Source: Gammaproteobacteria bacterium (GTDB taxonomy: Bacteria; Pseudomonadota; Gammaproteobacteria; GCA-002705445; GCA-002716945). From it: 64,000 nucleotides of DNA. Under the pieces are notes generated by a model. That model was not told the origin of the DNA. It saw nothing but the letters and a program-made list of their open reading frames with translations, and did no database searches. Made by a program: the position numbers and the translations under genes. Every line of letters starts with the position of its first letter. The first letter of the stretch is position 1. The stretch covers positions 1 to 64,000 of the forward strand of contig JBJKYD010000012.1 of assembly GCA_045561295.1 (NCBI GenBank), in the 5' to 3' direction. Below, one piece after another: positions 20,272-62,759 of the stretch.

Positions 20272-20310
20272 GATTTAGTGGAGGATACATTGTATCATTT
20301 AACTATAATT

Positions 20311-21261: not shown

Positions 21262-21263
21262 GC

Positions 21264-21935
21264 ATGAATCTTTCTTTCATTATTCCAACACTTAACGAGG
21301 AACGCACGCTTTTATCAAATCTAATTTTTTTAAAAAGAATAAGAAAATATCTTAATGCTGAATTGATAGTAGTTGACGGGGGAAGCCATGATTCTACGGT
21401 AAATATTGCCAAAACATTATCATGTAATGTATATATATCTGAACCTTCTAGATCTAAACAATTTAATTTAGGAGCAAAACATGCCCGCGGGAAGTACTTA
21501 GTATTTCTTCACGCTGATACCATACTGGATAATGATGCAATAGACCATCTTAAAAAGATTAAAAAAAATACTCAATGGGGGTTTTTTAGTATCAAAATAA
21601 AATCAAATAATTGTAAGTACAAGATACTATCTGCGCTTATAAACATAAGAAGTAGGTTGTTTAATTACGCGACAGGCGATCAAGTTATGATAGTGGAGAA
21701 TAATTTTTTTTACAGAGTGAAAGGTTTCAAAGAAATATATCTAATGGAAGATATAGAGCTGTCTAATAGAATAAAAAAATTAAGCAACCCAAGTTTAATT
21801 AGAGGATTAGCTATAACTTCTCCAAGGAGATGGGAAAAAAATGGTTTTTTCAAAACGATTCTCCTGATGAGATTTTTAAGAATACTATATTTCCTTGGCG
21901 TTAATGATAAATTTCTAGCTAGTATTTATAAATGA
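21264..21935 (+). CDS. GT2 glycosyltransferase, TIGR04283 (ArsS-associated) type
   Basis: IIPTLNE, VDGGS.D, FLHADT, TGDQ, LMED, TSPRRW. Confidence 0.85.
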   Translation: MNLSFIIPTLNEERTLLSNLIFLKRIRKYLNAELIVVDGGSHDSTVNIAKTLSCNVYISEPSRSKQFNLGAKHARGKYLVFLHADTILDNDAIDHLKKIKKNTQWGFFSIKIKSNNCKYKILSALINIRSRLFNYATGDQVMIVENNFFYRVKGFKEIYLMEDIELSNRIKKLSNPSLIRGLAITSPRRWEKNGFFKTILLMRFLRILYFLGVNDKFLASIYK

Positions 21936-22516
21936 GCACAGTAATTAATATTATGTCAAAAAATCCTGACTTTGCTGAATGCAAAACTAGATTAAAGAGT
22001 CTTTTATCAAAAGAAGAAAGAGTATACATAACAAAGCATATGCTAGATATAACATGTAGTGTTGTATCGGAGTTTAATACTACAAACATGCTGCATCTGT
22101 TTCCAAATAAAGATGGTATGTTTATTAGAAGTCTTTCAAAGAAGTATAATATAATACCTCAGATTCAAAGAGCAGGTCAGCTAAGTGACAAGATACATTC
22201 AATATTAAATCAAGATAATCAAATATTTGAAAAGAAATTAGTAATAGGTGCAGATATTCCGTCTATAAGTATTGATGAAATTTCTGAATGCATGAATTCA
22301 TTAAATGAATACGATTGTGTTTTTGGTCCTTCAAATGATGGAGGGTTTTATCTTGTAGGTACTAAAGCTAATGCACATTTCATATTTGAAAATCTCAATA
22401 TGGATACTATTTTAATCCATCACTTAACAGCCATTTGCAAGAAAAATAGAATTAGTTACAAACTAATAAGAGAACTCAAAGATATTGACTGTGAACAAGA
22501 TTTATTATCTATTTGA
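21932..22516 (+). CDS. TIGR04282/DUF2064 CofC-like transferase (ArsS-associated)
   Basis: K.P....KTRL, IGADIP, GPSNDGGFYLVG, L.DID...DL. Confidence 0.82.
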   Translation: MSTVINIMSKNPDFAECKTRLKSLLSKEERVYITKHMLDITCSVVSEFNTTNMLHLFPNKDGMFIRSLSKKYNIIPQIQRAGQLSDKIHSILNQDNQIFEKKLVIGADIPSISIDEISECMNSLNEYDCVFGPSNDGGFYLVGTKANAHFIFENLNMDTILIHHLTAICKKNRISYKLIRELKDIDCEQDLLSI

Positions 22517-32398: not shown

Positions 32399-33027
32399 TA
32401 TTTTATTGAAGAAGGATTGAAATATTTTTTACCATTGATATCAGATGATATTTCTTCTATCAATAACTGATAATCATTCTGATCATTTATATTTACATTG
32501 GAAGTGTTAATTATCAGAACAGGTGACGATGTGTATTCGTGGAAATGTTTCATATATAGATCATTAACAGATTCTATATATTTTTTTTTTATATTTTTTT
32601 CTACATCCAAGCCTCGTTTCTTAATTCTTTCAATTAATATATCTGTTGAGGCTTGAAGATAAATAATCAAATCTGGTAAAGGTGGAATAAAATTAAGCTT
32701 TTGACGGATACTACTGTACATTTCAAATTCTAGCTCTGATAAATTCAATTTAGCGAATAACTCATCTTTACCAAAATAGAAGTCAGATATTAGCATATCA
32801 TTTGTTCTATTGATTTTTTCAGATTGATCGATTCTTTTTAAAAGAAAATATAGCTGCGTAGAAAAAGAATTGCTCTGATTTTCATCATAAAATTTTTTTA
32901 AGAATGGATTATCAGCATAATCTTCAAATAGTGTCTGGCATTTCATGGTATTAGATATAGTTTTAGCCAATGTAGTCTTACCAACACCGATTGCACCTTC
33001 TATAGCAATATATTTGTTATTTATCAT
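32398..33027 (-). CDS. Deoxynucleoside kinase family protein
   Basis: IEGAIGVGKTT, NPFL..FY, TQL.FL..R, PDL.IYL.A. Confidence 0.88.
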   Translation of the reverse strand: MINNKYIAIEGAIGVGKTTLAKTISNTMKCQTLFEDYADNPFLKKFYDENQSNSFSTQLYFLLKRIDQSEKINRTNDMLISDFYFGKDELFAKLNLSELEFEMYSSIRQKLNFIPPLPDLIIYLQASTDILIERIKKRGLDVEKNIKKKYIESVNDLYMKHFHEYTSSPVLIINTSNVNINDQNDYQLLIEEISSDINGKKYFNPSSIK

Positions 33028-33482
33028 TATAAGTTTTTAATTAAATTTGAAACTTTGCCATATTTTGGTATTTCATAACCATAGTTTGTTATTTCATATA
33101 ACGGTATTAAGACAAACTCTCTATATTCTAGCCCTGGATGAGGAATTGTTAGATTTTTTGACTCCATAGTAATTCTATTATAAATCAGTATATCTAAATC
33201 TATGCTTCTGGGTCCCCACTTTTTTGTCCTTTTCCTATTATGTTGTTTCTCAAGTCCTTGAAGTTCATCCAATAATTCATGTGGATTCAAATTTGTTTTA
33301 ATTTCTATTACAGCGTTAATAAAATTAGGCTGACTTTGAGGTCCTAGAGGTTTCGTTTCGTATAAGCTTGATTTTTTTAAAATTCTAGTAGATTTAATTC
33401 GATTTATTTGTTTTAAAACAGAATATATTCTGAAGTAAGGATGATTTTTATTACTTCCTATACCTATGAAAACTTGATTCAA
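33027..33482 (-). CDS. folK: HPPK
   Basis: IG.GSN, SSLYET.P.G...QP.F.NAV, WGPR.IDLDIL, IPHP....R.FVL.PL. Confidence 0.95.
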   Translation of the reverse strand: MNQVFIGIGSNKNHPYFRIYSVLKQINRIKSTRILKKSSLYETKPLGPQSQPNFINAVIEIKTNLNPHELLDELQGLEKQHNRKRTKKWGPRSIDLDILIYNRITMESKNLTIPHPGLEYREFVLIPLYEITNYGYEIPKYGKVSNLIKNL

Positions 33483-39903: not shown

Positions 39904-40272
39904 ATGTTTAAACTAATTGTAAAAAAGGAATTTTCATCAGCCCATATACTTCATGGTCATCCAGGAAACTGTAAAAGAATGCATGGGCATAACTGGCTTG
40001 TTGAGGCAGAAGTTCAAGGAGATAATACCAACGAAATTGGTATGGTAATAGATTTTAAAGATATTAAAAATAACCTTAAAGAAATAATTTCTAATCTAGA
40101 TCATCAATTTCTTAACGATTTAGAACCTTTTATCAATGAAAACCCAACAGCAGAAAATATATCGAAATATATTTATAAAGAACTATCAAATAATATTAAT
40201 ACTGATAATATAAAAGTCAGTAAAATAAAACTGTGGGAAACTAGTAACGCAGCAGTAACTTATACAGAGTGA
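39904..40272 (+). CDS. queD: 6-carboxytetrahydropterin synthase QueD
   Basis: F.SAH.L....[30 protein letters not shown]. Confidence 0.92.
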
Positions 40273-40276
40273 ATAT

Positions 40277-41086
40277 ATGTCAACATCAAAGTCAAAATTA
40301 GAAATTTCAAATTTACCAGATACACAAGGACAGGCTGATACAAGAAATATGCCTATCAATAAAGTAGGAATAAAAGATATTCTACATCCTATGGTTATAA
40401 AACAAAGGTCTGGAAAACAGCAATCAACCATTGCTAACTTTAATATGTATGTAAATCTTCCTCATGATTTCAAAGGAACACACATGTCTAGATTTGTTCA
40501 TATTTTGAATAATCATGAAGAACAAATAACGGTTGATTCATTTAGAAAGATGATTGATGAAATGCTAATACTTTTAGAAGCTGACTCAGGTCATATAGAA
40601 ATGAAGTTTCCATATTTTATAAAAAAAACTGCTCCAGTTTCTAAAGTGCAAAGTCTCCTTGACTATACAGTCTCGTTTATAGGAGAAATTGAAGATGGTA
40701 AATCCAAGCTTAAAGTAAAAGTTTTGGTTCCAGTTACAAGCTTGTGTCCATGCTCAAAGAAAATATCTGAATACGGAGCCCATAATCAAAGATCACATGT
40801 GACTATTACTGTAGCAATAAAAGATTTCATTTGGATTGAAGAAATCATTGATATTGTCGAGAGTGAATCTTCTTCAGAATTATACGGTCTTTTAAAAAGA
40901 CCTGATGAAAAGTTTGTTACAGAGCGAGCTTATGATAATCCAAAGTTTGTTGAAGACATGGTTCGTGATATTGCCGTTCATTTTAAGAATGATGAGAGAG
41001 TAACAGAATATACAGTTGAATCAGAAAATTTTGAATCGATTCACAATCACTCAGCATATGCACAAATTCATAAAGTTAAAGACTAA
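40277..41086 (+). CDS. folE2: GTP cyclohydrolase FolE2
   Basis: [44 protein letters not shown]. Confidence 0.95.
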
Positions 41087-49872: not shown

Positions 49873-51069
49873 CTATTTTTTTCTTGTTTTCAGCCTAAGT
49901 GCATTAATTTTTATAAAGCCCTCAGCGTCCCTTTGATTATATGCTCCAGAGTCGTTCTCAAATGTTGATAAATCCTCAGAATATAATGAATATTCAGATC
50001 TTCTCCCCTCAACAATGACATTACCTTTATATAATCTAAGTCTAACATCACCAGAAACTCTCTTTTGAGATTGATCAATCAAGCTTTGAAGAGATTCTCT
50101 CTCCGGGCTAAACCAATAACCATTATAAATTAATCTTGAGTATCTATTAGTTAAATCTTCTTTTAAATGAAGCATTTCTCTGTCTAGCGTTATCGATTCT
50201 ATTGCCTTGTGAGCCTTGAAATAGATTGTTCCGCCCGGAGTTTCATAACATCCTCTAGATTTAATACCAACGTATCTATTCTCAACAATATCATCTCTGC
50301 CAATGCCATGATTACCAGCTATTATGTTAAGTTGATTTAATACTTTAGAAGGGCTCATTTTTTTATTATTGATAGCAACTATGTCGCCCTTATCAAAAGT
50401 CAATTGGAGTAACTCTGATCTTGATTTACTTTTTTCAAGAGATTTTGTTCTCAACCACATTACTTCTTCAGGTCTCTTCCATGGATCCTCCAAAATACCT
50501 CCCTCATATGATGTATGAAGAATGTTTGCGTCCATAGAGTATGGGCTTTTTTTACCTTTATCAAAATCAACGGCAATTTTATGTTTCTTTGCATAACCCA
50601 TTAAATCTGATCTAGATATAAAGTCCCACTCTCTCCATGGCGCTATAACTTTAATTTTAGGATTTAATGCATAAGCAGCTAATTCGAATCTTACTTGATC
50701 ATTGCCTTTACCGGTTGCTCCATGACAGATATATTCAGCTTTTTCTTTCTTTGCTATTTCAATAAGTCTCTTACTTATAAGAGGACGAGCAATAGATGTT
50801 CCCAGAAAATATTCACCTTCGTAAATTGCATTTGCTCTGAACATTGGATAAACATAATTAGATACAAAATCCTCTCTAAGATCTTCGATATATATTTTTT
50901 TTATACCAAGTTTCTTAGCTTTTACTTTGGCATCTCTAGTTTCTTCACCTTGACCAATATCAGCAGTAAAAGTAATGACTTCAAGATCATAGTGCTCCAT
51001 AAGCCATTTAGCTATTACAGATGTATCTAGACCGCCAGAATAAGCTAATACAACTTTTTTAGGCTTCAT
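49873..51069 (-). CDS. argG: Argininosuccinate synthase
   Basis: [50 protein letters not shown]. Confidence 0.97.
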
Positions 51070-51517
51070 TCATTTCCTCTGATGATTGCATTTCAGGCTC
51101 TACCCATCTGAAACCCTTATCAGTTGCTTCTTTTTTCCAAAATGGCGCTTCACTTTTTAGTGCCTCCATAATCTGTCTTGTAGCTTCAAAAGCTTCGTCT
51201 CTGTGTTCTGACCACGAAGCAACAAGCACAATTGGATCTGAAGGGTTTACAAGCCCTACTCTGTGTAAGACGATTGAATCGATAATCTTATATTTCTTTG
51301 TTGCATTTTGAACAATTTTCTCGAGGTAACCCTCTGTCATATCAGGATAATGTTGCAATTCCATAGATTTAATTGCATCCCCAGAATTAATGTCTCTCAT
51401 AGTTCCTAGAAAGACGCTACAAGCTCCTATATTATTTTTTTCTTTGAGTTGGGATCTTTTATATTCGACAAGTTTTTGCCAAGGATCGAATTCTTCATTT
51501 ATAATTTCAATATACAT
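51059..51517 (-). CDS. moaE: Molybdopterin synthase catalytic subunit
   Basis: GA...F.G..RD, HYP.MT, HRVG, S.HR..AF.A...ME.LK..APFWKKE. Confidence 0.93.
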
Positions 51518-51519
51518 TT

Positions 51520-51753
51520 TTAACCACCTGTTACTGGAGGAAAGAATGCAATCTCATCATTTTCAGATAGCAGATAGGACATATCTACATATTCATGATT
51601 TACTGCAACCATCACCTTTCCAGTGTATTTAATATTTTTTGAAACATCTGCCCAAATATCACCAGCGGTTATTTTATCCTGCCATTCTATTTGTTCAGAG
51701 GTTTTTCCTATCGCATCACTGATACTTGCAAAGTATTTTACTACAATTACCAT
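51520..51753 (-). CDS. moaD: Molybdopterin synthase sulfur carrier
   Basis: V.YFA, AVN.EY, DE.AFFPPVTGG C-terminus. Confidence 0.92.
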   Translation of the reverse strand: MVIVVKYFASISDAIGKTSEQIEWQDKITAGDIWADVSKNIKYTGKVMVAVNHEYVDMSYLLSENDEIAFFPPVTGG

Positions 51754-51814
51754 TATTATGACTGAATGATACATTCATGTGTCGGTAAACTCAAATCTAA
51801 TATATTTATCTAAA

Positions 51815-52072
51815 CTATGATGCTTTAGATTTATTGCTTAAAATTACACCCAATAGAATACTTACATAACAAATGATTAGATATATCCAGTCACCATCAT
51901 TTATTAAAGGATAAATTGGTATCAAAGGGAAAAACATAGCTGTCCCAATAAAACCGACAAGAATATGAAATATTCCATATTCAGGAAAGGTTTGTGCGAG
52001 TATTCCAAAGCTTGCAAAAAATGATGTGATGATAGCTATGCTGTAAAAAATATAAGATAGAATCTTTAACAT
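51815..52072 (-). CDS. Small 3-TM hypothetical membrane protein
   Basis: ATG 52072 directly after the moaA stop; hydrophobic helices. Confidence 0.55.
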   Translation of the reverse strand: MLKILSYIFYSIAIITSFFASFGILAQTFPEYGIFHILVGFIGTAMFFPLIPIYPLINDGDWIYLIICYVSILLGVILSNKSKAS

Positions 52073-52073
52073 A

Positions 52074-53093
52074 TTATCCGCCGATATAAGACATCTCGAC
52101 TTTTGGTGAATCAATTTTATTTATGAATCTGAGCTCTGAATATCTATCTGCTCTCTTACTCCATATATTATAAAAGTAGTCTAAAACATCTTGGCCACTT
52201 GCTCCCGCTCTAATAATTTTTTTAAGATCATGTCCCTCCGTAGCAAATAGACATGTGTATAACTTTCCATCAACAGAAAGTCTTGCCCTATTGCATCCAT
52301 TGCAAAATGGTTCGGTAATAGATGAAATAAAGCCCACAGAAGTATTTGTATTATCTATAGACCATTTTTGTGCTGTGGAAGATTTATTAGTATCAATCAG
52401 CGAAAGGTTATATTTTGAAATGATCAATTTTAAAAGTTGACTTGATGGCACAACTTTATCTAGGTTCCAGTTATTTGATTCACCAACATCCATATATTCA
52501 ATGAATCTTACTTCTGAATTTATCCCAATCATTTTATCAATAATATCTAATACTTCTTCATCATTTATACTTTTAATAACAACAGTATTTGTCTTTACTA
52601 TATTGAAATATTTTTCTATGCCTTCTAAGACTTTATCAAGGTCAAATGTTTTTTTAGTCCCATTTATTTGTACAGTCTTATCAAAGTGCAATGTATCCAG
52701 GCTGAGAGTAACTGAATCTAAGCCTGAAGCTTTTAGCTCATTCAGTTTCTTGTCTGTAAGAAGAGAACCGTTTGTGGTCATACTTACATCTTTGATACCT
52801 ACTTCATTTTTTAGTTTATAAATTAACTTATCTATATTTTTTCTTAATAAGGGTTCTCCACCGGTAATCCTTATCTTTTTTAGTCCAATTTTCTTTAATA
52901 TTGTTGATATTTGAATAATCTCCTCATAGGATAAAATTTTACTTTGTTTGATATAACTATAGTCCTTATTAAATATTTCAGAAGGCATACAATAGCTACA
53001 TCTATAGTTACAACGGTCTGTAACTGATATCCTAAGATATTCGAATTCACGTGATAGCATGTCTTTGTATTTATTTACAGTATCGACATTCAT
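52074..53093 (-). CDS. moaA: GTP 3',8-cyclase
   Basis: LRISVTDRCNYRCSYCMP, ITGGEPLLR, RFIEYM, FC..CNRARL...G.LY.CLF, MSYIGG. Confidence 0.95.
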   Translation of the reverse strand: MNVDTVNKYKDMLSREFEYLRISVTDRCNYRCSYCMPSEIFNKDYSYIKQSKILSYEEIIQISTILKKIGLKKIRITGGEPLLRKNIDKLIYKLKNEVGIKDVSMTTNGSLLTDKKLNELKASGLDSVTLSLDTLHFDKTVQINGTKKTFDLDKVLEGIEKYFNIVKTNTVVIKSINDEEVLDIIDKMIGINSEVRFIEYMDVGESNNWNLDKVVPSSQLLKLIISKYNLSLIDTNKSSTAQKWSIDNTNTSVGFISSITEPFCNGCNRARLSVDGKLYTCLFATEGHDLKKIIRAGASGQDVLDYFYNIWSKRADRYSELRFINKIDSPKVEMSYIGG

Positions 53094-53838
53094 CGTCTTT
53101 ATTGATTTTGATTGTTTTAAAATCATTATTTTTTAGATCTAATAGAAAAAGTTTACTTTCAAATGTTTTTCCAAATTTGCACAACACTTTGATACATTCT
53201 GTCGCTAAGATAGTGCCAACGAAACCAGTAACACTTCCAAGAATACCTGAATCTAGACATGTATTTTTTGTATTAGGAAGATCTGAATATAAACATCGAT
53301 AACATGGTTCGTTATCAATATCATTTCTAAAGACTGCAACTTGCCCTTCAAACTTTAATGCTGCTCCTGATATAAGTGGTATTCGATGTAAAAGAGATAT
53401 TTGATTAATAAGGGTTCTTGCCTCAAAGTTATCTGTACAGTCAATAATTACATCAAATTCTTTGAGTTTGCTTGTATCAAATCTTTGATCAACCCTAGAC
53501 TTATCAGTCTTTATTATTAAATCAGAGTTGAGTTCCAGTAGTCTTTTTGATGCCGCATCTACTTTGTTTTTATTAAGATCGTTTTCAGTGAATAGAGTTT
53601 GTCTATTAAGATTGGTTAATGATACTGTATCGTCATCTATTAGCAATAAGGTCCCGAGGCCAGAAGATGCAAGGTATGTAGATACCGGACAACCTAGACC
53701 GCCTAGACCAATGATTGCAACTTTTGAATTTATAAGTATTGTTTGTCCATCAATATCAACTTCAGGAAGAACAATATGTCTATTATATCTTAGTAATTGT
53801 TTGTCAGTTAAATCAGCCTTTGTTTTTTTGGCTAGCAT
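53071..53838 (-). CDS. moeB: Molybdopterin-synthase adenylyltransferase (MoeB/ThiF)
   Basis: RY.RHI.L, G.GGLG, D.V..TNL.RQ, DCTDNF..R, PCYRCL, C..C C-terminus. Confidence 0.88.
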   Translation of the reverse strand: MLAKKTKADLTDKQLLRYNRHIVLPEVDIDGQTILINSKVAIIGLGGLGCPVSTYLASSGLGTLLLIDDDTVSLTNLNRQTLFTENDLNKNKVDAASKRLLELNSDLIIKTDKSRVDQRFDTSKLKEFDVIIDCTDNFEARTLINQISLLHRIPLISGAALKFEGQVAVFRNDIDNEPCYRCLYSDLPNTKNTCLDSGILGSVTGFVGTILATECIKVLCKFGKTFESKLFLLDLKNNDFKTIKINKDDECRYCK

Positions 53839-54106
53839 TAAATTTATCCAGTTGTTCTTTTGTTGCCTCTTTCTGATATTTTTCTTTATAACTATCATAA
53901 GGCATTCCATATATTAACTCTCTTGCAGCATCATATGATAATTCTTCACCTTGGGAGGAAGACTCTGATACATACCATTTTGAAATACAATTTCTGCAAA
54001 AGTTCGCCAAATTCATTAAATCAATATTTTGGACATCAGGATTCTCTTGCAAATGCTTCACAATTCTCCTGAATGTTGCAGCTTCAATTTCTGTTTTTTT
54101 ATTCAT
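53813..54106 (-). CDS. DUF1244 family protein
   Basis: EAA.FRR.V.HL....DVQNIDLMNLA.FCRNC..KW...IYGMPY..K..YQ. Confidence 0.85.
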   Translation of the reverse strand: MNKKTEIEAATFRRIVKHLQENPDVQNIDLMNLANFCRNCISKWYVSESSSQGEELSYDAARELIYGMPYDSYKEKYQKEATKEQLDKFNASQKNKG

Positions 54107-56380: not shown

Positions 56381-56608
56381 CTACAAATTTAAATTTCTGA
56401 TAAAGAAGTTAGCTAACAGTCCTATTATGTATAGAGTAATTGCTAAATAAATTATTCCAAATGACATTGAAGAGAAAAAATATAAGATTGATGGAATTGG
56501 ACTATATTGAGAAAAATACCCATGAGTAAAATGAATGAATATTAATAGTGGAACAGAAATTAAAGCTCCATGGAGTATGTTATTAATTACATTTTTTAAA
56601 AAATTCAT
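56381..56608 (-). CDS. Small 2-TM hypothetical protein
   Basis: 75 aa; fills the gap between hisI and the RibD-like gene exactly. Confidence 0.55.
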   Translation of the reverse strand: MNFLKNVINNILHGALISVPLLIFIHFTHGYFSQYSPIPSILYFFSSMSFGIIYLAITLYIIGLLANFFIRNLNL

Positions 56609-56620
56609 ATAATCACTAGT

Positions 56621-57400
56621 ATGTCTAAAATCAGTATAACAAAAAAAACTGCCTGGTCACTTATTTTAAATATTAATGCTAAAACAAAATATAAAGCTAA
56701 AAGAAATATTATTGAAATAAGTGAAGAGTTTCAGAAAAATACTTTTCAAATTCGATATAACCGAAAAAAAAATTATATTGAAGATACTAATATAAATTTA
56801 AAAAAAGATATTGAAAATCTATTCCATATTTTTTTGCCCATAGTCTGTTTTCAAGGTAAAATTCAATATATCGCTCACATTGCTCAATCTCTTGATGGGT
56901 TTATTGCTACAGAATCAGGTGAGTCAAAATATATTAGTGGTAAAGAAAATCTTGAACATATTCATAGATTAAGAGCTGTCTCAGATATCATCATCGTTGG
57001 CGCAAAGACTTATCTTGAAGATAAGCCAAAACTAACAACTAGATTAGTAAAAGGCAATAATCCGTTGATTTATGTTTTTGATCCGAAGAGAATTTTGAGA
57101 AAAAAAGATATCATGGGTGATATAGTCCATTTAAGAGATAATCTGGATGAATTGAAAAAGACTTTACATAATAAAGATAAACAGACTATTTACATTGAGG
57201 GTGGTGGAAGGACTATATCTTATTTTATGAACAAAAATATTTTAAATAAAATTCACATTTGTTTGTGTCCTATCATTTTAGGAGGTGGACGACCATCGTT
57301 TGTACCTGATAAATATATCGAGCTTAATAATCAAAAATCCTTCAAGCCAAATCATTATCACATGGGTAAAGATATACTGTTTGATATTGAAATTAACTAA
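56621..57400 (+). CDS. RibD C-terminal-type reductase (no deaminase domain)
   Basis: AQSLDGFIAT..GES..ISG.E...H.HRLRA.SD...VGA.T...D.P.LT.R, IEGGG.T, P.ILG.G. Confidence 0.85.
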   Translation: MSKISITKKTAWSLILNINAKTKYKAKRNIIEISEEFQKNTFQIRYNRKKNYIEDTNINLKKDIENLFHIFLPIVCFQGKIQYIAHIAQSLDGFIATESGESKYISGKENLEHIHRLRAVSDIIIVGAKTYLEDKPKLTTRLVKGNNPLIYVFDPKRILRKKDIMGDIVHLRDNLDELKKTLHNKDKQTIYIEGGGRTISYFMNKNILNKIHICLCPIILGGGRPSFVPDKYIELNNQKSFKPNHYHMGKDILFDIEIN

Positions 57401-58267
57401 TTTTTCTGTTGATTAAGAAATACATACCAGGAAGTGAACAGAACAAATTAGTTAAACCATATACAATGGCGACAGTAACGCTTGCAGAAACCGTTAGCCC
57501 CAAAAGAAAAGATATTGCTAACGCAGTTGTTTCCCTAACACCCCCAGCCGCCCTATGCTTACAGGCAGAGTCATTGAAAATAATATAATTGGCGCAAAGA
57601 CAAAGAAGCTAATGATATCGATATCAAGATTAAGTGAAAATGCACAAATTATGTATGTAGTTATATAGGTTAATACAATTATTAATGATAAAAAGAAATG
57701 CTTGTAAAAAAGCTTGCCGCTAAAAATATATTTAAAATTAATAATATATTTATTATTTTGTTTGTATCTAAAAAATAATCTTATTAATAAGAAAAGTATG
57801 AGAATAGTCCCTATTACATAATAGAATGCAGTATATTTTTCATTAATAAAAAAAAATAATGACAGAGATATTATAAATGTTACAACTAATGTTATTTGAC
57901 CTGATAACCTTTCAAGAATGACGGATTGCAAGGATTTTAAGATATTTCCTCTTTTTTCCCCATTGATTTTTATATTTATACTTCTATAGATATCACCTAG
58001 TATCCCAGTTGGAAGAATATTATTTAAAAATCCAGATATATAGTAGAATCTTATTGCATCTTTGTAGTCGATTCTTGATCTTGTTTTAGAGGCAATGAAA
58101 TGCCATCTCCATGCCGATAAAAAATATTGAAGCAAGCTTAATAAAACAATTAAAGGTAAATATAATAGATTTACTTCTTTAATTATTAGTTTGATATCGT
58201 TTCCATAGTACACAATGAGATAGCTCATCAGTACTATTGAAAGAAAGTATTTAAGATTATTTTTCAC
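57393..58267 (-). CDS. Lysylphosphatidylglycerol-synthase TM/flippase-like protein (UPF0104); frameshifted near the 3' end
   Basis: SAWRW, YY...F.N..LP....GD..R, ER.SGQ, LP.S.G; removing one G from each of two G-runs (57541-57553) restores IGGWGVRE and a 290-aa ORF ending at 57393. Confidence 0.78.
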
Positions 58268-59136
58268 TTTTTATAAAGTAAGATATCATTATGCCCAACA
58301 TATAATTGGATTTTTTTATTATCAATTTCAGATTTTTTATCTTGATACCATTTTCTGAGTATATTTTTATCTATTCCCTCCATATGAAATAAAGACTTCT
58401 TGATATCGAGAAGATATCTTTTCATAAATACTTTATCTTTATCAAATCTATTTTTAATAATCCATGGTGAATCTTTTACAGTTATATTGAGATTAAGTTT
58501 GACTGCTTTTTGTTTTATAAATTCAATAGATTTACACCCCAGTGCCTTTCCAAATCCTTTGTCTGATCTTTGGTGATTATTAAAAAATGTTAGTATATAT
58601 TTATCAAATGTATTTGTAGGCGTCCACCTGACTTGGCCATTAAAACATAAGGAGAAATAAAGAATATTGTTTTTTTTAATTCTTTTTAATGCGCTAGCTA
58701 TTGATGGCTTAGGCATAATATCGAGTGCAGCTGAGTAACTTATTACATGATATTTTTCACTAGAGCATCTGTAACTATCACAATCATTTTTTTTAATTGA
58801 AATCGTAGATAATATTTCGTTATTTTTTTTAATAAGAAAATCAAGATTATTTGTATTTGACTGAATACTATACATTGGCCTTAAATGAGTTCTTAAATTA
58901 CTCTTTATTGATTTAAGTAATTTTATGTCGTGATCAACTAATATACAGTTGTTGAATAAGATATTTTTATCTAATGACCATATTAAAAAGTTACCTGATC
59001 CACAGTATAAATCTATAAGATCAATATCATGTTCTTGAGATAATTTATTTATATGATCAACTAAGACCGTACTTCGAGAAATATTATCATAGTCTACTCT
59101 CATATTAATCCATGATTTACTAAATTTATTACCCAT
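58264..59136 (-). CDS. Class I SAM methyltransferase-like protein
   Basis: F...W...R...D..SRS, DL.CG.G, VD.D..LL, SA.LD, FN.HQR.DKGFG.ALG, SPW, VGH.D. Confidence 0.72.
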   Translation of the reverse strand: MGNKFSKSWINMRVDYDNISRSTVLVDHINKLSQEHDIDLIDLYCGSGNFLIWSLDKNILFNNCILVDHDIKLLKSIKSNLRTHLRPMYSIQSNTNNLDFLIKKNNEILSTISIKKNDCDSYRCSSEKYHVISYSAALDIMPKPSIASALKRIKKNNILYFSLCFNGQVRWTPTNTFDKYILTFFNNHQRSDKGFGKALGCKSIEFIKQKAVKLNLNITVKDSPWIIKNRFDKDKVFMKRYLLDIKKSLFHMEGIDKNILRKWYQDKKSEIDNKKIQLYVGHNDILLYKK

Positions 59137-60115
59137 TTAATACCTGCTTAAAACTAGAACCGACATCTTCCCAACTTCTAGTCCTTAAATTAATGTGATT
59201 ATCATCAAATGATGTTTTGATAATAGCATCTGCAACTGCCCGTGGAGATTTTGAATCTGTGTAAGTTCTATTAAACCCCCTTAGGTTTTCTCTAAATACT
59301 GGTAAATCTGCTACAACTAGAGGTAGTCCAATAGTTGCACTCTCTATATTAGCCATTCCATAACCTTCATACTTACTTAGGCAAAGATAAACTCTGGAGT
59401 TTTTAAGATGTTCAATTAATATTTTTTCGTCATCAATAGTATTATGAAAAACAACTCTATTTTCTAAATTATAATAATTTATTTTTGAAATAAGATTCTT
59501 ATAATAAGGATCGCTGTCATAAAACCCGCCAAATATTGAAAGCGTCCACTTTTCACTAAGATGACTAAGCGTTTCAATACATTTTTCTATATTTTTTCTT
59601 GGGATAACAGAACCTGTAGTGGCTATATTATGGTTAATATTTAAATTTGTAATTTTATTCTGGTAATAAATATTGTCAACTCCAGGATATATAACATCAA
59701 TATTTTTATTTTTAGTTAACATATTCTTTATAATTTTTTTCATGGTATGGCTAACTGTAATGATTCTTTTTGCATGAGAAAATACTTTCCTTTCTTTAAG
59801 CTTAGAACTAATATCTCCATTTTTATTCTCCTCATAAGATACTGGGTGATGAATCAGCAAAATAATATTATATTTTTTTGAAAGTATTTTTATAAGATAA
59901 TTCATTTTCGATGCGACAAGACCATCAATTAGTAAAGTAGAGTTTTTTGGAATCATATTAATTTTAAAGAAGAACTTATATGATAATAAATTAATATCTT
60001 TTAGCATAACATTGATTATTTTACATCTATGAGTGTTAAGATAGTCGATAACATTTAAGTCATACTTGTTCCCACCAGATATACTTTTGAGATCTGGAGT
60101 AATAAAATAGTTCAC
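59129..60115 (-). CDS. GT4 glycosyltransferase
   Basis: SGG..YD, IDGL, L.HHP, PG, PRK, S.YEGYGMA..E....GLP. Confidence 0.85.
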   Translation of the reverse strand: MNYFITPDLKSISGGNKYDLNVIDYLNTHRCKIINVMLKDINLLSYKFFFKINMIPKNSTLLIDGLVASKMNYLIKILSKKYNIILLIHHPVSYEENKNGDISSKLKERKVFSHAKRIITVSHTMKKIIKNMLTKNKNIDVIYPGVDNIYYQNKITNLNINHNIATTGSVIPRKNIEKCIETLSHLSEKWTLSIFGGFYDSDPYYKNLISKINYYNLENRVVFHNTIDDEKILIEHLKNSRVYLCLSKYEGYGMANIESATIGLPLVVADLPVFRENLRGFNRTYTDSKSPRAVADAIIKTSFDDNHINLRTRSWEDVGSSFKQVLNG

Positions 60116-60116
60116 T

Positions 60117-60509
60117 TTAGATAGTTTTTATATATGAAGCTGAAGCTATATGATTTTCTTTTAATTCAATCTTAACTGAATAAAGCTTGTTTATTGGATA
60201 ATTAATATTCTGTAATTCCATACAAATATCATCAACAAATTGTTTTGCCATATACTCTGTAGTAGTAATGTGATTGTTAAATTTATCTATTTCGTCAAGA
60301 TTTTTGTAGTTATATTGTGCAATAACATTCTTTAATACTTTATTCGCTATACCAATATCAATAATTACATTTTTCTCAATAAGTTCCTTCGAAGAAATAA
60401 TCAGATCAACTACATAGGTAACACCATGAAGATTTTTAGCTGGTCCAAAAAATTCATCTTTTAGACTATGTGCTACAAAACAATAGTCTCTAATTTTCAG
60501 TTCATACAT
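60117..60509 (-). CDS. PTPS/QueD-family (COG0720) paralogue lacking the catalytic Cys
   Basis: RD...AHSL....FGPA..LHG.TY.VD, IDIG.A, Y.NLD.....TTTE..A, E...A.A.Y. Confidence 0.82.
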   Translation of the reverse strand: MYELKIRDYCFVAHSLKDEFFGPAKNLHGVTYVVDLIISSKELIEKNVIIDIGIANKVLKNVIAQYNYKNLDEIDKFNNHITTTEYMAKQFVDDICMELQNINYPINKLYSVKIELKENHIASASYIKTI

Positions 60510-61478
60510 TTAATATCTCACAACTTTACAAAGACCATTCGAATTTCCTTTTTTAAAAAAAGACGGCAAGTCTTTTAAAAAGATTTCTTTTTTATCAATC
60601 AAGGCATCTAATCTTTTGTCTTTCAACATATTTAGAGCCAATAATCTTCTACTTAAATTATTCCATTTTTTTGATTTATATGCTGATATATTCCCAACTT
60701 GCGAGAATATAATTTTTAATCTTCTTGAAAAACAGTTTTCCCCCATTTTGATTTTAGTTTGTTGCTTGCCATACCAGCTGAGAATGCATACCTTTGTTTC
60801 TAATGAGCATTTTGATAGTAATTCATTTATCACATCTACGTTACCAGAACACTCATAAATAATGTCGGCCTCATTTATGCAGCTTAGATCACTTTTATAT
60901 ATTAACCCTAGAGCTTTACAAGTCTTCCTCTTTTTAGAATCCTTATCAATAATAATAACATCAATGCCAAAACTCTTAGATAAAACATAGGCCATGAGAA
61001 TTCCAACAATGCCTGCACCTATCACATATGTTTTATCGCCTATTGTTGGTTTTGTATCCCACATGGCATTAATTGCTGTTTCCATATTTGCCGTAAGAAG
61101 CGCTCTTCTCAATGGTATATCATTTGGAATAAGTGTGGCTAGCGATGCTTGAATAATATACATAGACTGGTGAGGAAACATTGTATAAACATGCTTATGG
61201 AGATATTTTTTTGGGCCCTTTAGTACCTTCCCTATATTTAAGTAACCATATTTTAGATCACTATCAAACTCGCCCTCTTGATGAGGAGCTCGCATAAAAC
61301 TAAATTGATTCTTCGGGACTTGTCCATCAAAAACTATTTTTTCAGTTCCATAACTTATCCCAGAATATAATGTCTTAACTAAGATTTCATCTTTTTCCAT
61401 AGAAGTATCAAGGAGTTCTTTTTTGATACTACCTTTTTTCTTAGATACCCAAAATGATTGTGCTGTATACTGATTCAT
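60510..61478 (-). CDS. MDR-superfamily dehydrogenase (S.GTE type)
   Basis: V.T.YSGIS.GTE, KYGY...G, PHQ, RA.L.ANMETA.NA.WD, G.G.VG, SWYG, SQVG. Confidence 0.82.
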   Translation of the reverse strand: MNQYTAQSFWVSKKKGSIKKELLDTSMEKDEILVKTLYSGISYGTEKIVFDGQVPKNQFSFMRAPHQEGEFDSDLKYGYLNIGKVLKGPKKYLHKHVYTMFPHQSMYIIQASLATLIPNDIPLRRALLTANMETAINAMWDTKPTIGDKTYVIGAGIVGILMAYVLSKSFGIDVIIIDKDSKKRKTCKALGLIYKSDLSCINEADIIYECSGNVDVINELLSKCSLETKVCILSWYGKQQTKIKMGENCFSRRLKIIFSQVGNISAYKSKKWNNLSRRLLALNMLKDKRLDALIDKKEIFLKDLPSFFKKGNSNGLCKVVRY

Positions 61479-61480
61479 GT

Positions 61481-62191
61481 ATGAATTATAACAAAAATAT
61501 AATCAGTGGATACCTAAGCATTCAAGTTATTATGACTAATTTAATATTTTTATTATTTCTTATTTTTTCTTTAACGGATAAAAATACTATCCCTTTGATA
61601 ATACATGACTCTATTATGATATATATAATTACCTGCATACTTTTTTATTTCCTGCTAAGACAAGATAAATTTTCTTATAATATTCCAAATGTGATAACTA
61701 ACTATAGATTAATTATCAATTGCTTCATTTTAATATTAGTGATGAATATAAATTACTATGATCATTACCTTCTTCTTGTACTAAGCGTAATAAGTCTATT
61801 ATTAGATGGGGTTGATGGCTACCTATCAAGATTTCTTAAACAACAAACGGATTTTGGAGAGACTTTTGATCAAGAAGTTGATAATTTTTTGATATTTATT
61901 CTTAGTTTTTCTCTTGTATATAATTATTCTTTTTGTTTTATGATTATGTGCGTCCCAATTTATAGATATATTTTCTTATCTTTAGTAAAATATGGGTATG
62001 TAAGTAATGGCAACCTTCGTAGCTCGTACTTTAGAAAGATTATATGCGTATCAATGATAATCATATTAATCCTCTCTAACTATTTATATACAATAGACGC
62101 AATAATTTATTTATTATATGTCATTATTACATTGTTAACTTACTCTTTTGTTAGAGATACAATATGGTTATATAGGAGAAGAAATGTTTAA
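61481..62191 (+). CDS. CDP-alcohol phosphatidyltransferase
   Basis: PN..T..R; DGVDGYLSR.....T.FG..FD.EVD signature; start uncertain (61454, 61481 or later). Confidence 0.88.
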   Translation: MNYNKNIISGYLSIQVIMTNLIFLLFLIFSLTDKNTIPLIIHDSIMIYIITCILFYFLLRQDKFSYNIPNVITNYRLIINCFILILVMNINYYDHYLLLVLSVISLLLDGVDGYLSRFLKQQTDFGETFDQEVDNFLIFILSFSLVYNYSFCFMIMCVPIYRYIFLSLVKYGYVSNGNLRSSYFRKIICVSMIIILILSNYLYTIDAIIYLLYVIITLLTYSFVRDTIWLYRRRNV

Positions 62192-62759
62192 GAAATATAT
62201 TTTAATAATCTTATTCCCGGTCGCTGTATGGGCCTCAGAAGATGAGTATATTATTGATAAATCACATTTTTCAGTAGGTTTCTTAGTTGAGCATGTAGGT
62301 TATGCAAAAACTTTAGGTATGTTTAAGCATATAGATGGAAGTTACACACATGATGTAACAAATAAAAAGATTAATGATATAAAAATTGTCATCAAAACTA
62401 GCAGTGTATTTACTAATGATGAGAAAAGGGATGAGCATCTGATGAGTCCAGATTTTTTACATGTAGAAAAGTATCCAGAAATGATTTTCGAAGCCACAGA
62501 TATTAAAATTGATGATAAGCAATCAATTATAAATGGAAATTTAACATTACTGGGAATCACCAAACCACTTATCCTTACTGGCAAGATAAATAAAATAGGC
62601 AAATATCCTTTTGGTGGCATTATTAAACCTTACGTGATGGGAATTTCAGCCAGAGGAACAATAAAAAGATCGGATCATGCAATGATGTATGCGATTAAGG
62701 ATAATCTAGTTGGAGATGAAATAGACTTGATCATAGAGTTTGAAGCAAGAAGACAATAG
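62184..62759 (+). CDS. YceI family periplasmic protein
   Basis: Signal peptide; ID..H..V.F.V.H.G....G.F, T....RD.HL.S.DF, G.LTL.G.TKP, I.RSD..M; AGGAG SD. Confidence 0.9.
   Translation: MFKKYILIILFPVAVWASEDEYIIDKSHFSVGFLVEHVGYAKTLGMFKHIDGSYTHDVTNKKINDIKIVIKTSSVFTNDEKRDEHLMSPDFLHVEKYPEMIFEATDIKIDDKQSIINGNLTLLGITKPLILTGKINKIGKYPFGGIIKPYVMGISARGTIKRSDHAMMYAIKDNLVGDEIDLIIEFEARRQ

Follow-up and report, generated by a model that had tools for sequence, protein, structure and literature searches.

A PTPS-IV-centred seven-gene cluster in a marine gammaproteobacterium is an instance of a mobile biosynthetic module and may build a GTP-derived lipid head group

The closest described relatives of the locus studied here are gene neighbourhoods built around PTPS-IV, a Cys-less subgroup of COG0720. 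The FGPAQ signature defines PTPS-IV in part of PMC5445326, which also gives RibD_C and GTP cyclohydrolase II as neighbours of PTPS-IV and SCO6650, and a review assigns PTPS-IV to F420 synthesis, citing unpublished work (part of PMC5041015). We found no product of a PTPS-IV cluster in the open-access literature, in line with the initial annotation on this point. Bacterial pterin glycosides include cyanopterin, biopterin glucoside, limipterin and tepidopterin, and we know of no lipid attachment of these compounds. On the lipid side, actinobacterial PIM synthesis uses a phosphatidylinositol(-phosphate) synthase and a GT4 mannosyltransferase, PgsA performs polyol-phosphate transfer, and phosphoglycerol and phosphoethanolamine are taken from phospholipids, with LtaS- and MdoH-related families moving head groups from lipids.

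The window analysed is a stretch of 64,000 nucleotides from a marine bacterium, and all seven genes of the cluster were located at 56621-62191 using the window's open reading frames and a Pfam scan:

56621..57400, plus strand, RibD_C-type pyrimidine reductase, 259 aa (Pfam RibD_C, 99.1 bits)
57393..58267, minus strand, MprF-type flippase-like membrane gene, frameshifted, called ORF 57518-58267, 249 aa (LPG_synthase_TM, 98.4 bits)
58264..59136, minus strand, class I SAM-dependent methyltransferase-like gene, 290 aa (motif I and Atlas look-alikes)
59129..60115, minus strand, GT4 glycosyltransferase, 328 aa (Pfam Glycos_transf_1, 67.3 bits)
60117..60509, minus strand, PTPS-IV-type T-fold protein, 130 aa (Pfam PTPS, 65.4 bits)
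60510..61478, minus strand, MDR-superfamily dehydrogenase resembling polyol dehydrogenases, 322 aa (ADH_zinc_N, 27.6 bits, under the 31.8 cut-off)
61454..62191, plus strand, CDP-alcohol phosphatidyltransferase, longest ORF 245 aa (Pfam CDP-OH_P_transf, 68.3 bits)

Every gene named in the initial annotation is present, and the tight coupling it described is borne out by the five minus-strand genes, which are separated by at most 1 nt or overlap by 4-8 nt (0 nt gap, 1 nt gap, 8 nt overlap and 4 nt overlap), with the MDR gene directly upstream of the PTPS-IV gene. All seven genes are syntenic in 13/13 related gammaproteobacterial loci at protein identities of 32-96%, and dN/dS against the relative L001 is 0.07-0.30 for the cluster genes and 0.05-0.21 for six flanking genes. 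Purifying selection acts on all seven genes at these values, and together with the synteny in every relative this shows that the arrangement did not come about by chance. For the CDP-alcohol transferase, 61481 is the probable start, since four close relatives have lengths of 235-236 aa. The flippase-like gene is there as annotated, but its description had to be corrected, as it is frameshifted, with two more bases than L001 within a G-rich run at ~57541-57557; the ORF is 249 aa in the window versus 289-297 aa in 13/13 relatives, with five predicted hydrophobic segments versus six in L001. The last 50 codons can still be read in a different frame that ends at a stop at 57393-57395, and they encode the L001 C-terminus with 8 synonymous and 0 non-synonymous differences. 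The frameshift is either a recent event or an artefact.

The PTPS paralogue had been set apart from the Cys-bearing true queD at 39904 by an FGPA..LHG motif, and this distinction held. Its signature is FFGPAKNLHGV (FGPAQxLHG as the consensus of its homologues), whereas queD at 39904-40272 has GNCKRMHGH, and only queD passes the QueD equivalog cut-off of 89.25 bits (107.7 bits versus 40.9 bits for the paralogue). Alignment with QueD places Ala24 at the position of the Cys, Val30 at the third His and Asn-Tyr at the Asp-His pair, while H14, H28, T83, E85 and E118 are retained in common with QueD; hhalign relates the two with 98% probability at 23% identity. The family profile matches PDB entry 3D7J, titled 'Uncharacterized protein SCO6650', at 1.5e-53. 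Judged by these sequence features, we assign the window paralogue to the PTPS-IV type, the FGPAQ-signature subgroup of COG0720.

The solved chains nearest to the reductase are 6p8c (7e-16) and 2azn (7.6e-14), which are archaeal-type 2,5-diamino-6-ribosylamino-pyrimidinone 5'-phosphate reductases; all of its equivalog scores are under cut-off, and an N-terminal extension of ~80 aa matches no known family. The zinc motif of the E. coli RibD deaminase has no counterpart in the window reductase, and no deaminase domain was found in the window or in five Pfam-scanned loci. The MDR protein has a GxGxxG motif and invariant S39, S42, G44, T45, E46, H103 and E133 in its alignment, which has no invariant Cys. 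Its best NCBIfam match is BchC (56 bits vs a 291 cut-off), and the solved chains nearest its profile are butanediol, sorbitol, iditol and galactitol-1-phosphate 5-dehydrogenases (2.5e-10 to 2e-6), in matches that span mainly the cofactor-binding domain. GT4 is nearest to 2jjm and 3mbo (1.5e-5), deposited as group 1 glycosyltransferases and presumably BshA, which glycosylates a small molecule, and the NCBIfam BshA and MshA models match it weakly, under cut-off. The Pfam scan of the methyltransferase-like gene at 58264-59136 gave no family above cut-off; motif I is conserved (DLYCGSG in the window, DLGxGTGS in relatives), its Atlas look-alikes (0.97-0.99) are named class I SAM methyltransferases, and a Pelagibacteraceae-type homologue matches Methyltransf_25 at 32.3 bits. 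The CDP-alcohol transferase has an intact catalytic motif (DGxDGxxSR-x8-G-x3-D-x3-D) and seven predicted hydrophobic segments. It scores 43.1 bits against the pgsA equivalog (cut-off 109.1) and 79.7 bits to the Streptomyces cluster enzyme vs 44.7 bits to E. coli PgsA, grouping with cluster-linked enzymes from other phyla and not with E. coli PgsA.

We drew our locus set from 538 matches to a narrow motif and took the best 80, 44 of them from one alphaproteobacterial (Pelagibacteraceae-type) lineage, with neighbours counted within 10 kb of the PTPS homologue and labelled by phmmer at 1e-6. Among these best 80 of 538, co-occurrence was clear: an MDR gene lay near PTPS-IV in 77/80 loci, GT4 in 74/80, RibD_C in 70/80 and the methyltransferase in 61/80. 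GT4 and the methyltransferase are fused in L046, while L006 has PTPS and GT4 within a single ORF. The GTP cyclohydrolase II and creatininase partners that the initial annotation had named occur in 52/80 and 47/80 of the same best 80 of 538, and their claimed absence from the window was confirmed among the 65 window ORFs scanned for these domains. No GTP cyclohydrolase II was found within 10 kb in the window or the 13 relatives, so for this cluster a GTP origin is extrapolated from other lineages, where Y105, C54, C65, C67 and R128 of E. coli RibA are conserved in 53/53 of the cluster-linked GTP cyclohydrolase II proteins. The window's flanking EamA, MOSC, HisI, YceI and OMT genes were found in 0/67 loci outside its own lineage (best 80 of 538).

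The proposed link to lipids found support, along with all other testable parts of the initial interpretation. A cluster-specific CDP-alcohol transferase accompanies PTPS-IV in 32/36 loci outside the alphaproteobacterial group (best 80 of 538), spanning Gammaproteobacteria and Bacteroidota, but in 0/44 inside it, where lipid genes are missing from 44/44 loci. Adding to the link, MprF-like (16/80) and Wzx (5/80) flippases, LtaS/EptA-like transferases (11/80) and PEMT-like proteins (9/80) recur in this best 80 of 538. In annotated plasmid contexts, for which 10 of 22 matches were taken, a Zn-ADH gene is adjacent in 10/10, the methyltransferase present in 10/10, GT4 adjacent in 8/10 and RibD present in 7/10, along with a CDP-alcohol transferase in 6/10 (Streptomyces, Microbacterium, Agrobacterium, Rhizobium, Thiodictyon and Haloarcula), ribA in 4/10 and a flippase-like gene in 4/10, including one unannotated Streptomyces ORF. 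The CDP-alcohol transferase and flippase are both absent from the remaining 4/10 (Methylosinus, Neorhizobium, Palleronia and Rhodobacteraceae SC52). Since 44/44 alphaproteobacterial loci (best 80 of 538) and these four plasmids lack lipid genes, the lipid step is either not universal or encoded elsewhere.

The MDR-PTPS-GT4-methyltransferase set was found on Streptomyces, Microbacterium, rhizobial, Thiodictyon and Haloarcula plasmids, in agreement with the initial annotation's statement that Cys-less PTPS-IV clusters with such genes in actinobacteria and haloarchaea; the Haloarcula plasmid carries this core with a CDP-alcohol transferase and creatininase. The seven genes are an instance of a horizontally mobile biosynthetic module occurring in Bacteria and Archaea, whose universal core is four genes: MDR, PTPS-IV, GT4 and methyltransferase. 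This core is smaller than the seven genes the initial annotation suggested to be near the minimum, though the same seven do recur together on Microbacterium pSGAir0570_2.

This gene set, common to bacteria and archaea, appears to convert a GTP-derived ring into a sugar-bearing, methylated membrane-lipid head group. The specific route we tentatively favour, at a little under an even chance, starts from a ribityl-diaminopyrimidine or pterin polyol derived from GTP, which after oxidation, tailoring, glycosylation and methylation would be linked to a CDP-lipid and then flipped; the enzyme classes are shown, and we infer the step order and substrates from them. GTP cyclohydrolase II, which would be encoded elsewhere in the genome for the window cluster and in-cluster in other lineages, would convert GTP to 2,5-diamino-6-ribosylamino-pyrimidinone 5'-phosphate, and the deaminase-less RibD_C-type reductase could then turn the ribosyl group into a ribityl polyol with the 2-amino group retained. 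The polyol-dehydrogenase-like MDR may oxidise a secondary hydroxyl on the ribityl chain, and a 2'-ketone closing onto the 5-amino group would yield a dihydropterin whose C3 side chain is phosphorylated. PTPS-IV, which keeps the predicted ring-binding residues and is without the catalytic Cys, the Asp-His pair and the third zinc His, might bind the 2-amino-4-oxo ring for cyclisation or tailoring. GT4 would add a sugar and the methyltransferase a methyl group, after which the dedicated CDP-alcohol phosphatidyltransferase may attach the polyol head group to CDP-diacylglycerol, or to CDP-archaeol in haloarchaea, and the MprF-type flippase-like protein could carry the product across to the outer leaflet. 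An LtaS/OpgB-like transferase might, in some lineages, then hand the phospho-head group on to envelope glycans. The creatininase-family partner (47/80, best 80 of 538) has no role in the proposed pathway.

It is unlikely, though deserving of weight, that the core genes instead make a soluble pterin or ribityl-pyrimidine compound bearing sugar and methyl groups, for instance a cofactor, pigment or protectant akin to the bacterial pterin glycosides, with the CDP-alcohol transferase and flippase as accessory or unrelated neighbours. The alphaproteobacterial loci and the four plasmids without lipid genes fit such a product, as do the presumed BshA likeness of GT4 and the ribokinase or PfkB kinases beside two short clusters. 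It is harder to reconcile with a CDP-alcohol transferase that recurs outside the alphaproteobacteria and on six of the plasmids and is closer across phyla than to E. coli PgsA, and with the recurrence of flippases, LtaS-like transferases and membrane-bound PEMT-like methyltransferases.

Less probable still is that the phospholipid is only a carrier, with the phospho-head group passed to periplasmic glucans, LPS or another envelope polymer. The LtaS/EptA-like proteins, 'sulfatase' membrane proteins also seen in 2/10 plasmid contexts, point this way together with MdoH-like glucan synthases beside the cluster in Methylosinus, Neorhizobium, L075, L046, L048 and L056, and Wzx-type flippases and sulfotransferases in Bacteroidota clusters, but neither LtaS-like nor MdoH-like genes turned up around the window cluster or in the 13 relatives.

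A further reading is that PTPS-IV and its partners provide a precursor of the riboflavin or F420 type, for example with PTPS-IV standing in at a pyrimidine step that is missing, as the review has it for F420 in archaea. GTP cyclohydrolase II and RibD_C are early-step families of both pathways and the Streptomyces and Haloarcula clusters have PPOX-family genes nearby, but this reading leaves GT4, methyltransferase, CDP-alcohol transferase and flippase without a role, the window and five Pfam-scanned loci showed no F0-synthase-like gene, and the part of PMC5041015 concerned gives its claim without data, so we consider it very improbable. The marine carriers are not known to contain F420. That the paralogue is a second QueD is hardly credible, for while RefSeq names 9/10 plasmid homologues (10 of 22 matches) '6-carboxytetrahydropterin synthase' and 5/10 carry a queuosine GO term, the protein falls under the equivalog cut-off and carries Ala at the Cys position, Val or Ala at the third His and Asn-Tyr at the Asp-His pair, the true queD adjoins folE2 at 39904-41086 in the same window, and queC and queE are absent from all clusters.

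Returning to the lipid head group as the preferred product, the window cluster belongs to a known cluster type. With QueD/PTPS-I its T-fold protein shares the fold family, one N-terminal His, the leading His of HGH, the T..E motif and the C-terminal Glu, and differs in its residues as set out above, in its gene context and in that the genome has a separate queD. As in the archaeal and fungal early riboflavin route, where a GTP cyclohydrolase is followed by a diaminopyrimidine reductase before deamination, the reductase has no deaminase domain and the GTP cyclohydrolase II partner of other lineages is canonical; unlike that route, the cluster has no lumazine or riboflavin synthase genes, and its reductase is extended and under all equivalog cut-offs. 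The pterin glycosides, compared by description, share a pterin-type T-fold enzyme, a side-chain redox enzyme, a glycosyltransferase and a methyl group, but their pathways begin with GTP cyclohydrolase I and a Cys-bearing PTPS. The flippase-like membrane domain resembles MprF, but the gene is without the C-terminal aminoacyl-PG synthase domain and scores 21 bits against the bifunctional MprF model (cut-off 600). The logic of PIM and PgsA is echoed by a CDP-alcohol phosphatidyltransferase in the same cluster as a GT4, with weak best matches to pgsA, cardiolipin synthase ClsA, DIPP synthase, archaetidylinositol-phosphate synthase and pssA, all under their equivalog cut-offs, and with a link to GTP-derived rather than inositol chemistry. 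SCO6650 of Streptomyces coelicolor (3D7J), itself an uncharacterized reference, shares the T-fold family and the FGPAQ-type signature (FGPAK in the window). Compared with its neighbourhood, the window cluster lacks GTP cyclohydrolase II and creatininase, and has a RibD_C gene and a frameshifted flippase-like gene, while the Streptomyces plasmid copy resembles the window in carrying a CDP-alcohol transferase, then Zn-ADH, PTPS, GT4, methyltransferase and flippase-like genes, followed by creatininase and ribA.

The cluster is of a recognised but unsolved type, found here in a new carrier. The initial annotation had described it as a seven-gene pathway tying pterin- or flavin-type chemistry to membrane lipid assembly; comparative genomics supports that reading, and the finding is real. 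The genes are listed below, those from the flippase-like gene to the CDP-alcohol phosphatidyltransferase as placed by the ORF list and family scans.

From 56621, + strand: RibD_C reductase, convergent with the flippase-like gene
58267-57518, - strand: flippase-like protein
59136-58264, - strand: 290-aa methyltransferase-like protein
60115-59129, - strand: GT4 glycosyltransferase
60509-60117, - strand: PTPS paralogue
61478-60510, - strand: MDR-type dehydrogenase
61454-62191, + strand: CDP-alcohol phosphatidyltransferase, divergent from the MDR gene

The five minus-strand genes, from MDR through PTPS, GT4 and methyltransferase to the flippase-like gene, are tightly packed, and none of the seven cluster genes reached an NCBIfam equivalog cut-off. 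The MDR start (61478, -) overlaps the longest CDP-alcohol transferase ORF (61454, +). A transferase start at 61481 is likelier and puts the divergent pair 2 nt apart, which leaves no room for an intergenic promoter. Scans for promoters and terminators found promoter-like sites to be rarer than in shuffles, and neither the window nor 7 representative loci gave a riboswitch match at gathering thresholds. The G+C content of the window is ~30%, and the closest genome locus (L001, record title "uncultured gamma proteobacterium") shares 91-98% protein identity over 13 genes. Measured against L001, dN/dS ranges over 0.07-0.30 in the seven cluster genes and over 0.05-0.21 in six genes that flank them, and the module is kept under purifying selection in this streamlined marine gammaproteobacterium. 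Between hisI and the reductase gene there is also a 75-aa protein (56381-56608, -) with two hydrophobic segments and no family match, kept in 13/13 related loci and in no other loci.

To examine co-occurrence, we scanned one-genome-per-species contigs with the motif [FVA]FGPA[QK]N[LM]H, which gave 550 stretches, 538 of them encoding a relative. The best 80 of these 538 matches were taken with 10 kb flanks each, and their ORFs were labelled with phmmer (1e-6) using the window proteins and the Pfam-annotated proteins of five loci as queries. Among these 80 loci we found MDR in 77, GT4 in 74, RibD_C in 70, the core methyltransferase in 61, GTP cyclohydrolase II in 52, a creatininase family protein in 47 and the CDP-alcohol transferase in 32, followed by MprF-like (16), LtaS/EptA-like "sulfatase" (11), PEMT-like (9) and Wzx-type flippase (5) proteins. 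Several missing partners reflect contig ends (e.g., loci L028, L045, L054, L058 and L065). The lineage-specific flanking genes of the window, which served as an internal control for mere neighbourhood, occurred in 0/67 loci outside its lineage.

The composition of the cluster varied with the lineage. All 13 marine gammaproteobacterial loci carry the seven window genes in identical order, with cyclohydrolase in 0/13 and creatininase in 0/13. The 44 alphaproteobacterial loci (one titled Pelagibacteraceae) carry a creatininase, the MDR, PTPS, GT4 and methyltransferase core, RibD_C and GTP cyclohydrolase II, and the CDP-alcohol transferase was found in 0/44 of them within the 10 kb flanks. In one of the loci (L015, 8175-8245) a tRNA gene adjoins the creatininase end of the alphaproteobacterial cluster. 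The 15 Bacteroidota loci have GT4 (14), CDP-alcohol transferase (13), MDR (12), RibD_C (12), GTP cyclohydrolase II (9) and LtaS-like (8) genes, some of them together with PEMT-like, additional methyltransferase, sulfotransferase and Wzx genes; L042, L044 and L063 are the fully Pfam-scanned examples. A CDP-alcohol transferase occurs in every one of the four Halomonadaceae or other gammaproteobacterial loci, accompanied in three of them by a flippase-like gene. Two fusions were also seen, one of GT4 with a methyltransferase-like C-terminus (locus L046, 10396-12330, 644 aa) and one of PTPS and GT4 in a single 460-aa ORF (locus L006, from 9998).

The cluster is also carried on plasmids. A tblastn search with a PTPS relative (P0188) returned 22 plasmid records, of which 10 were examined. 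In all 10 a "zinc-binding alcohol dehydrogenase" lies directly upstream of PTPS and a methyltransferase or hypothetical protein lies downstream, and the other partners are an adjacent GT4 (8), a RibD-family protein (7), a CDP-alcohol transferase (6) and ribA (4). Streptomyces fungicidicus p1 carries a CDP-alcohol transferase on the opposite strand, then Zn-ADH, PTPS, GT4, methyltransferase, an unannotated MprF-like ORF, creatininase and ribA, matching the window in order and orientation as far as the flippase-like gene. Microbacterium pSGAir0570_2, a mobilizable plasmid of 59 kb with transposase genes alongside, has the same seven genes as the window, and Haloarcula sinaiiensis pHsi388 has the four-gene core with CDP-alcohol transferase and creatininase within 7 kb. 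The Agrobacterium and Rhizobium SL42 plasmids have additional "sulfatase", flippase-like, ribA and cytochrome b genes, the Thiodictyon plasmid has additional cytochrome b, RibD and CDP-alcohol transferase genes, and the Methylosinus, Neorhizobium, Palleronia and Rhodobacteraceae SC52 contexts are without lipid genes. In the MDR tree, which was flagged for composition heterogeneity, the window groups with marine gammaproteobacteria in a clade of seven rows that is well supported. Alteromonadaceae are nested within a Saprospiraceae clade of this same composition-flagged tree (100/98), so the module is passed between phyla.

PF00925 was not found in the window or in the 10 kb around the cluster in the 13 relatives, and RibD_C (PF01872) is present. 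Both families are reported from PTPS-IV neighbourhoods in the part of PMC5445326 that deals with IPR007115, where PF00925 is labelled 'GTP cyclohydrolase I / FolE2'. Since Pfam names PF00925 GTP_cyclohydro2, the FolE2 of PTPS-IV neighbourhoods in that part of the article is most likely GTP cyclohydrolase II. E. coli RibA Y105, C54, C65, C67 and R128 are conserved in each of the 53 cluster-linked enzymes of this family, which therefore look canonical, given the roles that we take these residues, the zinc Cys included, to have in E. coli. A cluster-linked GTP cyclohydrolase II of Streptomyces presumably has a Tyr-to-Met change and a formylated product. A FAPy-type cyclohydrolase working with a creatininase-like deformylase was rejected for the lineages examined here, as the Tyr and the zinc Cys are kept in 53/53. 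Elsewhere the window has queD-folE2 (39904-41086), folP and folK (63-860, 33027-33482), and moaA, moeB, moaE and a moaD-like gene (51059-53910), so the organism has separate GTP-to-pterin routes besides the cluster. Three co-directional genes at 20248-22516 (+) encode a radical SAM protein with DUF3641, a GT2 glycosyltransferase and a DUF2064/CofC-like protein, which we take to be a recurring trio.

The reductase has a RibD_C domain (99.1 bits) and falls below the equivalog cut-offs (TIGR01508, 79.5 vs. 186; TIGR00326, 77.2 vs. 156), and its nearest solved chains, 6p8c and 2azn, are archaeal-type reductases acting before deamination. A bifunctional bacterial RibD was rejected because 6 cluster proteins have no counterpart of its N-terminal zinc-motif deaminase domain and gave no alignment to the E. 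coli RibD HAE...PC..C region. Neither the window nor the five Pfam-scanned loci showed a deaminase domain. The position four residues ahead of SLDG is His or Gln in the cluster reductases, Lys in E. coli RibD and Asn in the archaeal enzymes. Zinc-dependent MDR alcohol and polyol dehydrogenases combine a Rossmann GxGxxG with a catalytic zinc site that has a Cys ligand. Across 16 homologues of the window MDR the GxGxxG is invariant and no Cys is, with Ser42/Glu46, His103 and Glu133 invariant instead. The MDR protein scored 27.6 bits against ADH_zinc_N, under the 31.8 cut-off, and was rejected as BchC (TIGR01202, 56 vs. 291 bits). The nearest solved chains of its profile are polyol or secondary-alcohol dehydrogenases (butanediol, 2.5e-10; sorbitol, 1e-7; iditol and galactitol-1-phosphate 5-dehydrogenase, ~2e-6), matched mostly over the cofactor-binding domain.

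GT4 matches Glycos_transf_1 (67.3 bits, cut-off 26.4) and Glyco_transf_4 (31.8, cut-off 28.5). Its nearest solved chains are 2jjm and 3mbo (1.5e-5), both presumably BshA, and the NCBIfam BshA and MshA models match it weakly. The 290-aa protein is below every Pfam cut-off, with its L015 homologue reaching Methyltransf_25 (32.3 vs. 27 bits), and an alignment of 16 homologues has methyltransferase motif I (D/E-x-G-x-G-x-G). Its Atlas look-alikes (0.97-0.99) are named class I SAM methyltransferases, and the best match of its profile in the PDB is only 1.2e-4.

CDP-alcohol phosphatidyltransferases are polytopic membrane proteins with the motif D(x)2DG(x)2AR(x)8G(x)3D(x)3D. The window transferase has DGVDGYLSR-x8-GETFDQEVD, with Ser for Ala, along with seven hydrophobic segments and a Pfam CDP-OH_P_transf match of 68.3 bits. 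It was rejected as PgsA (TIGR00560, 43.1 vs. cut-off 109.1 bits), and its score of 44.7 bits with E. coli PgsA compares with 79.7 bits for the cluster enzyme of Streptomyces. This last enzyme is in turn 49% identical to those of the Halomonadaceae clusters. The flippase-like protein has an LPG_synthase_TM domain (98.4 bits) with its frame broken at ~57541-57557 and the last hydrophobic segment lost, giving an ORF of 249 aa vs. 289-297 aa in 13/13 relatives. DNA alignment places two additional bases within a G-rich run. The L001-type C-terminus can still be read in another frame, where 8 differences from L001 are synonymous and 0 non-synonymous, and the frameshift therefore either arose very recently or is an error of sequencing or assembly. 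A bifunctional MprF was rejected because even the relatives, at only 289-297 aa, are without the C-terminal aminoacyl-phosphatidylglycerol synthase domain (NF033480, 21.1 vs. 600 bits).

A YceI-family gene (62148-62759 in the window) directly adjoins that of the CDP-alcohol transferase, here as in 13/13 relatives; in E. coli, YceI is paired with a cytochrome b561 gene. 'Cytochrome b' genes occur within the Agrobacterium, Thiodictyon and Rhizobium SL42 clusters and that of locus L075 (L087 10008-10541; L089 9525-10082; L093 10023-10562; L075 7531-8160), and together these four clusters and the YceI gene hint at a connection with redox chemistry in the membrane. Six contexts have an MdoH-like membrane glucan synthase next to the cluster (L083 6076-7878; L090 4095-6008; L075 2357-4285; L046, L048 and L056 near 17000-18950), and LtaS/EptA-like 'sulfatase' proteins occur on 2 plasmids as well as in the 11/80 loci. 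These two kinds of neighbour hint that a head group is passed to periplasmic glucans.

The enzyme classes and their co-occurrence are established, and from them we infer the substrates, step order and product of the likeliest mechanism. A GTP-derived 2,5-diaminopyrimidinone would be reduced to its ribityl form, a side-chain hydroxyl would be oxidised, and the product would be cyclised or tailored on the PTPS-IV scaffold before glycosylation and methylation. It would then be joined to a CDP-activated lipid, and the lipid flipped to the outer leaflet; in the lineage of the window, the first enzyme of the pathway would have to be encoded elsewhere in the genome. Tentatively, and with the odds in our view against it, the product could be a new class of membrane lipid, with a GTP-derived pterin or diaminopyrimidine-ribityl glycoside head group on the outer leaflet. 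Such a head group might be a surface cofactor with redox, antioxidant or light-absorbing activity, or the donor in envelope glycan decoration, and its carriers would include bacteria that rank among the ocean's most abundant as well as actinobacteria, rhizobia and haloarchaea.

The cluster is of interest because its carriers are abundant and diverse and because, in the open full text searched, we found no paper tying its genes to a product or lipid. One protein of the set has been crystallised and its structure solved, the subfamily has been named in print, and carriers number in the hundreds, with the one narrow motif matched by at least 538 species-level genomes. A large group of Pelagibacteraceae-type genomes has a related form of the cluster. 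If the lipid reading is true, it would provide a new head-group class for bacterial and archaeal membranes and a function for a protein family mislabelled as a queuosine enzyme in public annotation. The comparative data point to Streptomyces, Vreelandella, Methylosinus and Haloarcula as tractable carriers.

The paralogue itself has the PTPS/T-fold domain PF01242 (65.4 bits, cut-off 22.4). It has 851 relatives at E <=1e-3 among 1.84 billion representative proteins, and the window protein is present on 184 contigs. Among 23 long PTPS representatives, 22 consist of the PTPS domain only, single or in tandem repeats, and in the other (P0267) a DUF2334 match overlaps an incomplete PTPS domain. Six relatives of 373-855 aa (P0124, P0126, P0130, P0139, P0131 and P0134) have 2-4 tandem PTPS-IV-like stretches per chain, and such chains may be a covalently joined T-fold trimer.

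Judged by its sequence, the paralogue is a PTPS-IV member and not QueD, given its FGPAQ-type signature, its profile match to 3D7J and its residue differences from QueD. An alignment of the window protein with 34 full-length relatives gave the consensus AHSLxGxxFGPAQxLHGATYVVD, with S15, G22, A24, H28, G29, T31, L71 and D72 invariant, and the window has the variant FGPAK of the consensus FGPAQxLHG. FGPAQ is given as the signature of PTPS-IV in PMC5445326, which cites Phillips 2012. The profile including the window protein matched PDB 3D7J (3d7j_A, titled "Uncharacterized protein SCO6650") at 1.5e-53 over 131 positions. The CxxxHGH of QueD brings together the catalytic Cys and three zinc His. 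CxxxHGH is given as the QueD motif in PMC5041015. The window queD (39904-40272, adjoining folE2) reads GNCKRMHGH vs. FFGPAKNLHGV in the paralogue, which was rejected as QueD (TIGR03367, 40.9 vs. cut-off 89.25 bits) with the Cys and third His replaced. Compared with QueD, the window protein has Ala24 at the position of the Cys and Val30 at that of the third zinc His, the third His of HGH being Ala across the PTPS-IV family and Val in the window protein, and an Asn-Tyr in the family replaces the Asp-His pair of QueD. The first His, the first His of HGH, the T..E motif and the C-terminal Glu are common to QueD and PTPS-IV.
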